A stretch of 28,381 bases of DNA from a virus (Duplodnaviria > Heunggongvirae > Uroviricota > Caudoviricetes): the IMG/VR virus record IMGVR_UViG_2909251562_000002; one strand, written 5' to 3'. Numbering within the stretch: the stretch's first letter is position 1; the number at the start of each line of letters is the position of its first letter. Position numbers and translations under genes: made by a program. Positions 25,676-28,270 of this stretch are shown piece after piece. The notes beneath the pieces were generated by a model, which ran no database searches, was not told the DNA's origin, and was given only the letters and a program-made list of their open reading frames with translations.

Positions 25676-26860
25676 CTAAAAGCCACACTAACTAATGAGA
25701 GAAGTTGAAATGAAATATCCGACAGGCGTGGAAAACCATGGAGGGAAATTACGTATCTGGTTTGTTTATAAAGGCGTAAGAGTCAGGGAAAATCTGGGGG
25801 TTCCTGACACAGCAAAAAACAGGCGCGTTGCAGGTGAACTACGCTCCTCTGTTTGTTACGCAATAAAAACTGGTGTTTTCGACTATGCAAAACAGTTTCC
25901 CTCCTCACGCAATCTGGAAAAATTTGGTGAGGCCCGACAAGATTTAACCATAAAAGAACTGGCTGAAAAATTTCTGGCACTGAAAGAAACTGAAGTCGCC
26001 AAAACATCACTCAACACATACCGTGCCGTCATCAAAAATATCCTGAGCATAATCGGTGAAAAAAATCTTGCCTCATCGATTAATAAAGAAAAATTACTGG
26101 AGGTTCGTAAAGAGCTACTGACTGGATACCAGATCCCCAAAAGTAACTATATTGTTACACAACCAGGGAGATCGGCTGTAACTGTAAATAATTACATGAC
26201 AAATCTTAACGCCGTGTTCCAGTTTGGTGTTGATAACGGTTACCTGGCAGATAATCCGTTTAAGGGGATCTCGCCATTAAAGGAATCAAGAACCATTCCG
26301 GATCCTCTTTCGCGGGAGGAATTTATCCGTCTTATCGATGCGTGCAGAAATCAGCAAGCAAAAAATTTATGGTGTGTTTCTGTTTATACTGGCGTTCGCC
26401 CTGGTGAGCTGTGTGCACTTGGATGGGAGGACATAGATCTGAAAAATGGAACAATGATGATCAGGAGAAATTTAGCAAAAGACCGTTTCACGGTACCAAA
26501 AACACAGGCGGGAACCAATCGGGTCATTCATCTTATTAAGCCAGCAATCGACGCTCTCCGGAGTCAGATGACATTAACGAGACTGAGCAAAGAGCATATC
26601 ATTGATGTTCACCTCAGAGAGTATGGCAGAACAGAAAAACAAAAATGCACCTTTGTTTTTCAACCTGAAGTGTCAGCGAGAGTAAACAATTATGGTGACC
26701 ATTTTACCGTTGACTCAATAAGGCAGATGTGGGACGCAGCGATAAAACGTGCCGGACTCCGCCATCGAAAATCATATCAGTCGAGACATACTTATTGATC
26801 TTACCCAGCAATAGTGGACACGCGGCTAAGTGAGTAAACTCTCAGTCAGAGGTGACTCAC

Positions 26861-27160
26861 ATGACAAAAACAGTATCAACCAGTAAAAAACCCCGTAAAC
26901 AGCATTCGCCTGAATTTCGCAGTGAAGCCCTGAAGCTTGCTGAACGCATCGGTGTTACTGCCGCAGCCCGTGAACTCAGCCTGTATGAATCACAGCTCTA
27001 CAACTGGCGCAGTAAACAGCAAAATCAGCAGACGTCTTCTGAACGTGAACTGGAGATGTCTACCGAGATTGCACGTCTCAAACGCCAGCTGGCAGAACGG
27101 GATGAAGAGCTGGCTATCCTCCAAAAGGCCGCGACATACTTCGCGAAGCGCCTGAAATGA
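26861..27160 (+). CDS. insE: IS3 OrfA (InsE), 99 aa
   Basis: [31 protein letters not shown]... from the ATG at 26861. Confidence 0.93.
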
Positions 27161-28023
27161 AGTATGTCTTTATTGAAAAACATCAGGCTGAGTTCAGCAT
27201 CAAAGCAATGTGCCGCGTGCTCCGGGTGGCCCGCAGCGGCTGGTATACGTGGTGTCAGCGGCGGACAAGGATAAGCACGCGTCAGCAGTTCCGCCAACAC
27301 TGCGACAGCGTTGTCCTCGCGGCTTTTACCCGGTCAAAACAGCGTTACGGTGCCCCACGCCTGACGGATGAACTGCGTGCTCAGGGTTACCCCTTTAACG
27401 TAAAAACCGTGGCGGCAAGCCTGCGCCGTCAGGGACTGAGGGCAAAGGCCTCCCGGAAGTTCAGCCCGGTCAGCTACCGCGCACACGGCCTGCCTGTGTC
27501 AGAAAATCTGTTGGAGCAGGATTTTTACGCCAGTGGCCCGAACCAGAAGTGGGCAGGAGACATCACGTACTTACGTACAGATGAAGGCTGGCTGTATCTG
27601 GCAGTGGTCATTGACCTGTGGTCACGTGCCGTTATTGGCTGGTCAATGTCGCCACGCATGACGGCGCAACTGGCCTGCGATGCCCTGCAGATGGCGCTGT
27701 GGCGGCGTAAGAGGCCCCGGAACGTTATCGTTCACACGGACCGTGGAGGCCAGTACTGTTCAGCAGATTATCAGGCGCAACTGAAGCGGCATAATCTGCG
27801 TGGAAGTATGAGCGCAAAAGGTTGCTGCTACGATAATGCCTGCGTGGAAAGCTTCTTTCATTCGCTGAAAGTGGAATGTATCCATGGAGAACACTTTATC
27901 AGCCGGGAAATAATGCGGGCAACGGTGTTTAATTATATCGAATGTGATTACAATCGGTGGCGGCGGCACAGTTGGTGTGGCGGCCTCAGTCCGGAACAAT
28001 TTGAAAACAAGAACCTCGCTTAG
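27157..28023 (+). CDS. insF: IS3 OrfB transposase (InsF), 288 aa
   Basis: ORF-track protein with integrase-core motifs; overlaps insE as in IS3. Confidence 0.93.
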
Positions 28024-28270
28024 GCCTGTGTCCATATTACGTGGGTAGGATCATATGCCTGCTGGTCGCTGACAGCTGGTGCTAACCCGGCATTTATAGC
28101 AAACCAGATGGGCCATGCAGATGCGCAAATGGTATTTCAGGTATACGGAAAATGGATGTCTGAAAACAATAATGCACAGGTAGCTTTGTTAAATACACAG
28201 TTAAGCGAGTTTGCCCCAACCATGCCCCATAACGAAGCAATGAAAAATTAATTTAATATTTATCAAATAG

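Follow-up and report, generated by a model that had tools for sequence, protein, structure and literature searches.

The locus examined here raises the question of why the integrase gene of a lambdoid prophage remnant is found in two pieces on either side of an insertion sequence, and whether the remnant can still leave the chromosome. The window, that is, the whole stretch of DNA analysed, comprises 28,381 nucleotides (IMG/VR virus record IMGVR_UViG_2909251562_000002). Gene content and position identify the element as the Qin cryptic prophage (mEp460-like, lambdoid) inserted in ydfJ. It is located between ydfJ' and ynfP-rspB and carries dicA/dicB/DicF, relBE, hokD, cspB/F/I and pinQ, a gene set derived from the annotation of the identical region in strain TW11681 and from comparison with K-12. 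The annotated order is ydfJ' (lacking its N-terminus), IS2, ynfT, ydfK, pinQ, a tail-fibre gene, lom, ISCro1, gnsB, cspI, lysis genes, cspB/F, Q, relBE, hokD, dicA, dicB, ydfD, a gene for an 823-aa exonuclease, xis and int interrupted by IS3, followed by rspB and rspA. The DicF RNA maps to 22184-22235 (Rfam). No head or tail-shaft genes are left in the annotated Qin region of these strains, so that as a phage the element was defective already. The features around the break in the integrase gene are the following.

25424-25675, plus strand: xis, excisionase gene, 83 aa, intact (Pfam DUF1233 'putative excisionase', 1.6e-31; PGAP)
25710-26795, plus strand: integrase 5' fragment, codons 1-362 (ORF list; PGAP pseudogene piece; residue mapping)
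26793-26795, no strand: TAT, left copy of the target-site duplication (sequence; single TAT in empty-site alleles and free phages)
26796-28053, plus strand, the same orientation as int: complete IS3, 1258 bp (comparison with K-12 IS3A; terminal repeats; PGAP)
26861-27160, plus strand: IS3 orfA, InsE-like, HTH_Tnp_1 (Pfam HTH_Tnp_1, 5.7e-10; N-terminal part of NCBIfam transpos_IS3)
27157-28023, plus strand: IS3 orfB, InsF-like DDE transposase domain, 288 aa (Pfam rve, 5.1e-28; rve_2; HTH_21)
28054-28056, no strand: TAT, right copy of the target-site duplication (sequence)
28057-28251, plus strand: integrase 3' fragment, codons 363-426 and stop (PGAP 'site-specific integrase, missing N-terminus')
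28271-28381, minus strand: ynfP, what remains of the N-terminal end of ydfJ; host sequence past the att core (K-12 annotation; intact ydfJ in prophage-free genomes; PMC6379469)

The insertion sequence is IS3 itself and, as far as its sequence indicates, is apparently intact. It shows a single mismatch over 1255 bp to IS3A of K-12 MG1655, and its first three bases are missing from the annotated K-12 copy. The element begins with 5'-TGATCTTACCCA... and ends with ...TGGGTAGGATCA-3'; its terminal inverted repeats (TGATC.TACCCA) are imperfect, with 28 of 39 terminal positions matching, and open with 5'-TG and close with CA-3'. The two transposase reading frames overlap by ATGA, with orfB shifted by -1 against orfA. 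The latter encodes 102 or 99 aa (alternative starts at 26852 and 26861, end at 27160) and contains an AAAAG slippery motif near 27122-27126, just upstream of the overlap. In PGAP, orfA and orfB are joined into one programmed-frameshift CDS ('IS3-like element IS3 family transposase', WP_085947771.1), and the NCBIfam model transpos_IS3 matches OrfB with 3.3e-101 and 339 bits (cut-off 160). All the features expected of a member of IS3 are thus found, namely near-identity and matching length, terminal repeats, two overlapping ORFs in the 0 and -1 frames with a predicted frameshift, and a target duplication in the 3-4 bp range. Compared with the IS3 copies of K-12 (IS3A-E; insE/insF), which have the same 1258 bp, terminal repeats, orfA/orfB with a programmed -1 frameshift and 3-bp duplication, the copy in the window differs in its insertion site only, apart from the three bases absent from the annotated IS3A. 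Predicted promoter and terminator sites between 25300 and 28381 are no more numerous than in shuffled sequence, and the promoter scan of the same interval found no outward promoter at the right end of IS3.

A 3-bp match is expected by chance in 1 of 64 cases, and the decisive evidence for the insertion therefore comes from the empty site. Removal in silico of 26796..28056 (1261 bp) produces a 1296-nt ORF reading ...SRHTYACWSLTAGANP..., which encodes an uninterrupted integrase of 426 or 431 aa, depending on the start. The frame would be kept by removing the insertion sequence together with 0, 3 or 6 bases, but only the removal of 3 additional bases reproduces the natural allele. Only 1 nt separates the restored gene from the uninterrupted int of strain STEC276 (WP_000877001.1). 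A 400-nt probe spanning the rejoined site is contiguous in 2,950 of 5,426 complete E. coli genomes, with an identity of at least 99% in 2,525, and the free phages HannyBb and mEp460_ev081 read CATACTTATGCCTGC with a single TAT at this position. The original prediction, made from the sequence alone, was that IS3 had entered the integrase gene, that TAT flanks it on both sides, and that removal of the element with one TAT copy restores the frame; each of these statements agrees with the above comparisons. A simple transposition of IS3 into codon 362/363 of int, with a 3-bp duplication, is thereby shown.

The position of the integrase start was less accurately predicted. The frame is open from ATG 25695, as originally proposed, giving a truncated ORF of 367 aa (25695-26798), but ATG 25710 (426 aa) is the likelier start because it is the one chosen by PGAP and a Shine-Dalgarno-like sequence, GAGAAG, is located 7 nt upstream. 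With either start, the ORF terminates at the TGA at 26796-98, which consists of the first three bases of IS3. The restored protein contains the Arm-DNA-bind_2 domain (PF12167, 1.6e-23, above the cut-off) and the Phage_integrase domain (PF00589, 4e-18), whereas the SAM-like core-binding domains score 5e-4, just below the cut-offs. The closest solved structures by sequence are those of Tn1549 Int (6EMY/6EN0, E 4e-9) and XerA (5HXY, 9e-9). Alignment of the restored protein to 6EMY and 5HXY assigns the catalytic positions as follows.

R230, motif TGVRPGE: Arg I
K264, motif VPKTQAG: Lys
Y356, motif KSYQSRHT: the usual position of the first His of HxxR
R359, motif RHT: Arg II
H382, motif MGHAD: His III
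Y392, motif FQVYGKW: presumed nucleophile, the sole Tyr of the nucleophile segment

The profile search that had been suggested as a check on the restored frame thus recovers both the integrase domains and the catalytic residues. The restored protein can be aligned with Tn1549 Int and XerA at the catalytic Arg, Lys, Arg-His-Thr and Gly-His motifs, but these relatives are distant and the identity is confined to the motifs. Unlike them, the integrase of the window has Tyr where the first His of HxxR is expected, and an N-terminal Arm-DNA-bind_2 domain that is lambdoid-specific; furthermore, its His-to-Tyr spacing is one residue longer, with Y392 at His+10 against His+9 in the Tn1549 Int alignment. 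Y392 is taken as the nucleophile because it is the only Tyr in that segment.

Over its full 426 aa, the restored protein shows 99.1-99.5% identity to the integrases of four isolated phages, HannyBb, PhiR42_1, mEp460_ev081 and Tritos. These phages have the same exonuclease-xis-int-attP layout, and their integrases likewise have Tyr instead of the first catalytic His. On the strength of these matches, the uninterrupted allele, with Tyr where the first His is usual, serves isolated phages as their working integrase, and from its presence in them we infer that it is active in recombination. The phage int genes differ from that of the window in being uninterrupted, in encoding K326 where the window encodes N326, and in belonging to complete phage genomes. 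The K326N change, due to C at position 26687, is private to the window allele: every uninterrupted allele has A at this position, and the best matches to the junction probe in the genome collection are all at 99.8%. The claim that the 5' part of the integrase is otherwise intact has thus to be amended for this single non-synonymous SNP. The excisionase-like gene directly upstream of int, in contrast, is intact as claimed, its product (WP_000005552.1 in PGAP) being the same as in strains with an intact int.

The placement of the insertion in the C-terminal catalytic region, also part of the original prediction, is borne out by the residue assignments: IS3 is located after Y362, between R359 and H382/Y392. 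The 5' fragment ('Arm DNA-binding domain-containing protein, missing C-terminus' in PGAP) keeps the arm-binding domain, the core-binding domain, R230, K264, Y356 and R359. H382 and Y392, the latter presumed to be the nucleophile, are encoded in the 3' fragment, for which the junction provides no separate start codon, and the catalytic set is incomplete in the actual product. Tyrosine recombinases require the Tyr nucleophile for DNA cleavage and strand exchange. The most plausible sequence of events is that IS3 transposed into codon 362/363 of the int gene of a ydfJ-integrated Qin prophage, so that the integrase ends after Y362 with a stop codon supplied by the IS3 terminus, and the Arg-I, Lys and Arg-II residues are separated from His-III and the nucleophile. 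The predicted 362-aa product would still bind arm and core DNA but would not cleave DNA, and Int/Xis-dependent excision of the Qin element would be lost. IS3 is one of several insertion sequences that have hit a remnant already without virion genes. Taken as a whole, this explanation, with a simple IS3 insertion, a truncated Int and excision presumably abolished, can be held with high confidence. The statement that the prophage can no longer excise is probably true, given that Y392 and H382 are split from the rest of the integrase; it concerns a cryptic remnant and not an inducible phage. Complementation was considered for near-identical copies, in the only genome with the IS3 allele in the respective table, strain 67-1. 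The xis-int 5' segment matches only one place in this genome, and no second near-identical xis-int copy that could complement the defect is present there.

The loss of excision is further supported by Qin of K-12, for which no excision is detectable, whereas seven of the other eight cryptic prophages of K-12 excise (PMC3105296). The intQ pseudogene of K-12 is the same gene, occupies the same position, flanked by ydfE/xis on one side and ynfP-rspB on the other, shares the att core and is likewise inactivated by an insertion sequence. The lesions themselves are different. In K-12, intQ is truncated at the 5' end next to IS2E, and xis and part of the exonuclease gene are removed as well; in the window, int is full length save for the clean IS3 insertion near its 3' end, and xis and the gene for the 823-aa exonuclease are intact.

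Whether IS3 was the lesion that immobilised the element depends also on the state of the attachment sites, for which two further features are relevant.

28289-28299, no strand: integrase-proximal att core GAAATCCATAA, an 11-mer (the same 11-mer at both prophage ends)
1-1320, minus strand: IS2 apart from its first 11 bp, which lie outside the window; target duplication GTCCC (removal restores collinearity with phage attP)

The core was recognised by visual inspection of both junctions, and further comparisons confirmed it. Its second copy is situated about 137 bp before the window begins, and GAAATCCATAA is found at both ends of the element here and in K-12, where it coincides with the annotated Qin boundaries, as well as in unoccupied ydfJ; the ynfP gene lies 20 bp beyond the intQ stop in the K-12 annotation. 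A direct-repeat search for att sites with a seed of 11 and a minimum length of 14 gave no match, the core being only 11 bp long. The attB reconstructed from the outer flanks and one core is contiguous, as intact ydfJ, in 2,011 genomes. The attP reconstructed from the inner flanks, after subtraction of IS2 and one GTCCC, aligns collinearly with the attP region of phages for 936 bp, at 98.6% identity to HannyBb and 99.4% to mEp460_ev081. Both att sites are thus present and close to the phage sequence, except that an IS2 has entered the distal attP arm, 126 bp away from the integrase-distal core. A search for arm-type sites as 9-mer repeats in the reconstructed attP yielded nothing convincing. 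The 7-mer TGCCCCA occurs in both attP arms but, with 6 copies in the window against about 3.5 expected, is a lead only.

The strongest alternative builds on this IS2. Under it, IS3 is a late neutral hit that is functionally irrelevant, excision having been lost already, for example because the IS2 near the distal core separates arm sites that are needed, or through regulatory decay. The element indeed has no genes for head or tail shaft and contains IS2 and ISCro1 in addition to IS3. Where phage attP is continuous, IS2 interrupts the sequence, immediately ahead of a TGCCCCA motif of which the proximal arm has two further copies. The IS2 insertion may by itself impair recombination, in which case IS3 was perhaps not the first immobilising lesion. 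Against this, the excision module looked pristine until IS3 arrived, with xis identical to that of other strains and int one SNP away from the alleles of active phages, and both cores and arms retain the identity to free-phage attP given above. Moreover, lambda is known to excise without its outermost P-arm site. We consider this alternative unlikely, while deserving of attention, and retain the truncation of Int by IS3 as the preferred cause of the loss of excision.

The exact insertion is rare. It was found in 5 of the 5,426 complete E. coli genomes (TW11681, 67-1, WS1933D, S1-NGR-02-A and LR883000), all of the ETEC type, and the 3,082-nt stretch around it is 100% identical in the five. Only nine genomes match this 3,082-nt int-IS3 probe with at least 80% coverage at one place: besides the five, there are three with IS3 elsewhere in xis or int and one with IS3 in the nearby rspA and an intact int. 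With only one private SNP in int and an xis identical to that of other strains, the insertion looks recent. It also looks neutral or nearly so.

The same stretch has been hit repeatedly. Independent IS3 insertions within xis-int-rspA are present in at least five further strains, and no two of them share a junction.

RCAD0514: IS3 in xis, duplication GTCG
VTB97584v: IS3 in int, duplication AAG
I4: IS3, internally deleted, in int, duplication TTT
H9Ecoli: IS3 in int, no duplication, adjacent deletion
GmM062: IS3 in rspA, duplication ATG, int intact

All six IS3 copies, the one in the window and those in the five strains, are in one orientation. In addition, int is truncated in Sp12 of O157:H7, and IS1A is present in the region in TUM17668.

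A second alternative holds that the insertion is non-random: either the xis-int segment of ydfJ-integrated (Qin/mEp460-type) prophages is an orientation-biased landing zone for IS3, or the loss of excision is positively selected, 'grounding' Qin with dicB, dicF, relBE and csp retained. The independent and uniformly oriented hits, with their own duplications or adjacent deletion, point in this direction, as does the other damage to int in K-12, O157 and, in the surrounding region, TUM17668; int mutations have been proposed as the cause of Qin 'grounding' (PMC6379469). The sample is small, the uniform orientation of six out of six corresponding to a two-sided p of about 0.03, uncorrected, and the six sites have no target consensus. 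The region is uninterrupted in about 2,350-2,950 of some 3,050 carrier genomes, and non-essential prophage DNA is generally tolerant of insertion sequences. The recurrent IS3 hits may simply reflect such tolerance of dispensable DNA and are too few for a claim of a hotspot or of selection; a non-random origin appears improbable. If it were true, the insertion in the window would be an instance of recurrent domestication in which cargo beneficial to the host (dicB, dicF, relBE, csp) is kept, and not of random decay, and the locus could be used as a small-scale natural test of whether the immobilisation of prophages is under selection.

Finally, a misassembly or an IS3-mediated rearrangement, with the integrase pieces never contiguous in this lineage, can be dismissed as extremely improbable: the sole point in its favour is the general fact that insertion sequence copies can be misplaced in assemblies, whereas the same configuration recurs in five independently assembled complete genomes, and the 3-bp direct repeat together with exact collinearity with thousands of empty sites is the signature of simple transposition, unlike the IS3-mediated deletion exemplified by H9Ecoli, which has no duplication and a foreign left flank.

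The simple insertion of IS3 is nothing new in kind: IS3, Qin, the decay of intQ and the inactivation of prophage integrases by insertion sequences are all textbook knowledge or documented, and RefSeq/PGAP already shows two partial integrase CDSs on either side of IS3. A literature search for TW11681 combined with prophage or IS found no paper on this particular allele. The insertion explains why two partial RefSeq integrase genes surround IS3 at the Qin locus of these ETEC-type genomes, predicts that the Qin remnant is locked in the chromosome of these strains, and adds one more data point on cryptic prophages that lose their excision functions to insertion sequences in the course of ordinary decay. 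The IS3/int junction also provides a clean lineage marker for the respective clade. The window is collinear over 25 kb with WS1933D and LR883000, and TW11681 additionally carries a 1.3-kb IS3-family element near window position 20471.

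The five other Escherichia coli strains with IS3 insertions at the same locus are as follows:

L004:1767-3024, RCAD0514, IS3 in xis, duplication GTCG
L005:2683-3940, VTB97584v, IS3 in int, duplication AAG
L007:3078-3863, I4, internally deleted IS3 in int, duplication TTT
L008:1501-2758, H9Ecoli, IS3 in int, without a duplication
L006:5004-6261, GmM062, IS3 in rspA, duplication ATG

The lack of a duplication in H9Ecoli implies an adjacent deletion. The int sites in VTB97584v, I4 and H9Ecoli are three positions, each different from the one in the window, and the insertions in xis, int and rspA of the five strains are independent events. 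In all six insertions, including that in the window, IS3 has the same orientation; the shared orientation and locus could be due to chance, to selection that favours immobilization, or to IS3 having a hotspot or a biased orientation here.

The 5' fragment of the interrupted integrase contains a private non-synonymous SNP at window 26687 (AAA to AAC, K326N). In the 2,950 genomes whose junction is uninterrupted, the best match to the junction probe (400 nt across the restored, IS3-free int junction) is 99.8%, that is, 1 mismatch in 400, and the A/C difference at 26687 is that single mismatch in the alleles compared directly, namely those of strain STEC276 and of the isolated phages HannyBb and mEp460_ev081, all with an uninterrupted int. 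Because no uninterrupted match exceeds 99.8% and the mismatch in these three alleles is this A/C difference, the C appears to be confined to the IS3-carrying lineage. Residue 356 of the restored integrase (window 26775-26777) is a tyrosine (YQSRHT) that replaces the first histidine of the usual HxxR catalytic motif. Since the integrase alleles of isolated phages share this tyrosine, it is a natural functional variant of this integrase type rather than a sign of decay.

The integrase-distal att arm is interrupted as well. An IS2 element with a GTCCC duplication occupies window 1-1320 (the first 11 bp of the element are outside the window), 126 bp from the distal att core, and splits a stretch that is contiguous in the phage attP. 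Directly past IS2, within window 1321-1345, there is a TGCCCCA motif (1331), with two more copies in the proximal arm (28212 and 28223). These copies may be arm-type Int sites, separated from the core by IS2, although the whole window contains only 6 copies of the motif versus about 3.5 expected.

At window 20471-20475, truncated ydfV and a regulator fragment are joined to truncated dicC, and the K-12 flxA-ydfW-ydfX region is therefore absent from the window. Among the complete genomes carrying the identical int::IS3 insertion, TW11681 has at this point an additional 1.3-kb IS3-family element, carrying an annotated 'AL1L pseudoknot', that the window lacks; span and piece count indicate that 67-1 (for which IS1414 is listed) and S1-NGR-02-A also have more IS elements at this site than the window does.

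Other prophage features in the window include:

12729-13113, minus strand, cspA-type thermoregulator 5' UTR upstream of cspI (Rfam)
15623-16015, minus strand, cspA-type thermoregulator 5' UTR upstream of cspB (Rfam)
22184-22235, plus strand, DicF sRNA (Rfam)
22880-25351, 823-aa 'exonuclease' gene upstream of xis

The DicF feature was not found in the PGAP annotation of the corresponding TW11681 stretch. The sole domain of the 'exonuclease' is a C-terminal Rv2179c-like 3'-5' exoribonuclease (residues 642-813); the long, acidic N-terminal two-thirds have no match in Pfam. This gene is intact in the window and the phages, but an internal stop interrupts it in both STEC276 and VTB97584v, and its K-12 counterpart, ydfE, is truncated. 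Finally, in the DUF1398-domain gene, the 21-nt unit TTACTGAAAGCATCCAGAAAA is present as a perfect tandem duplication (window 11693-11734) that is in-frame and corresponds to 7 aa.
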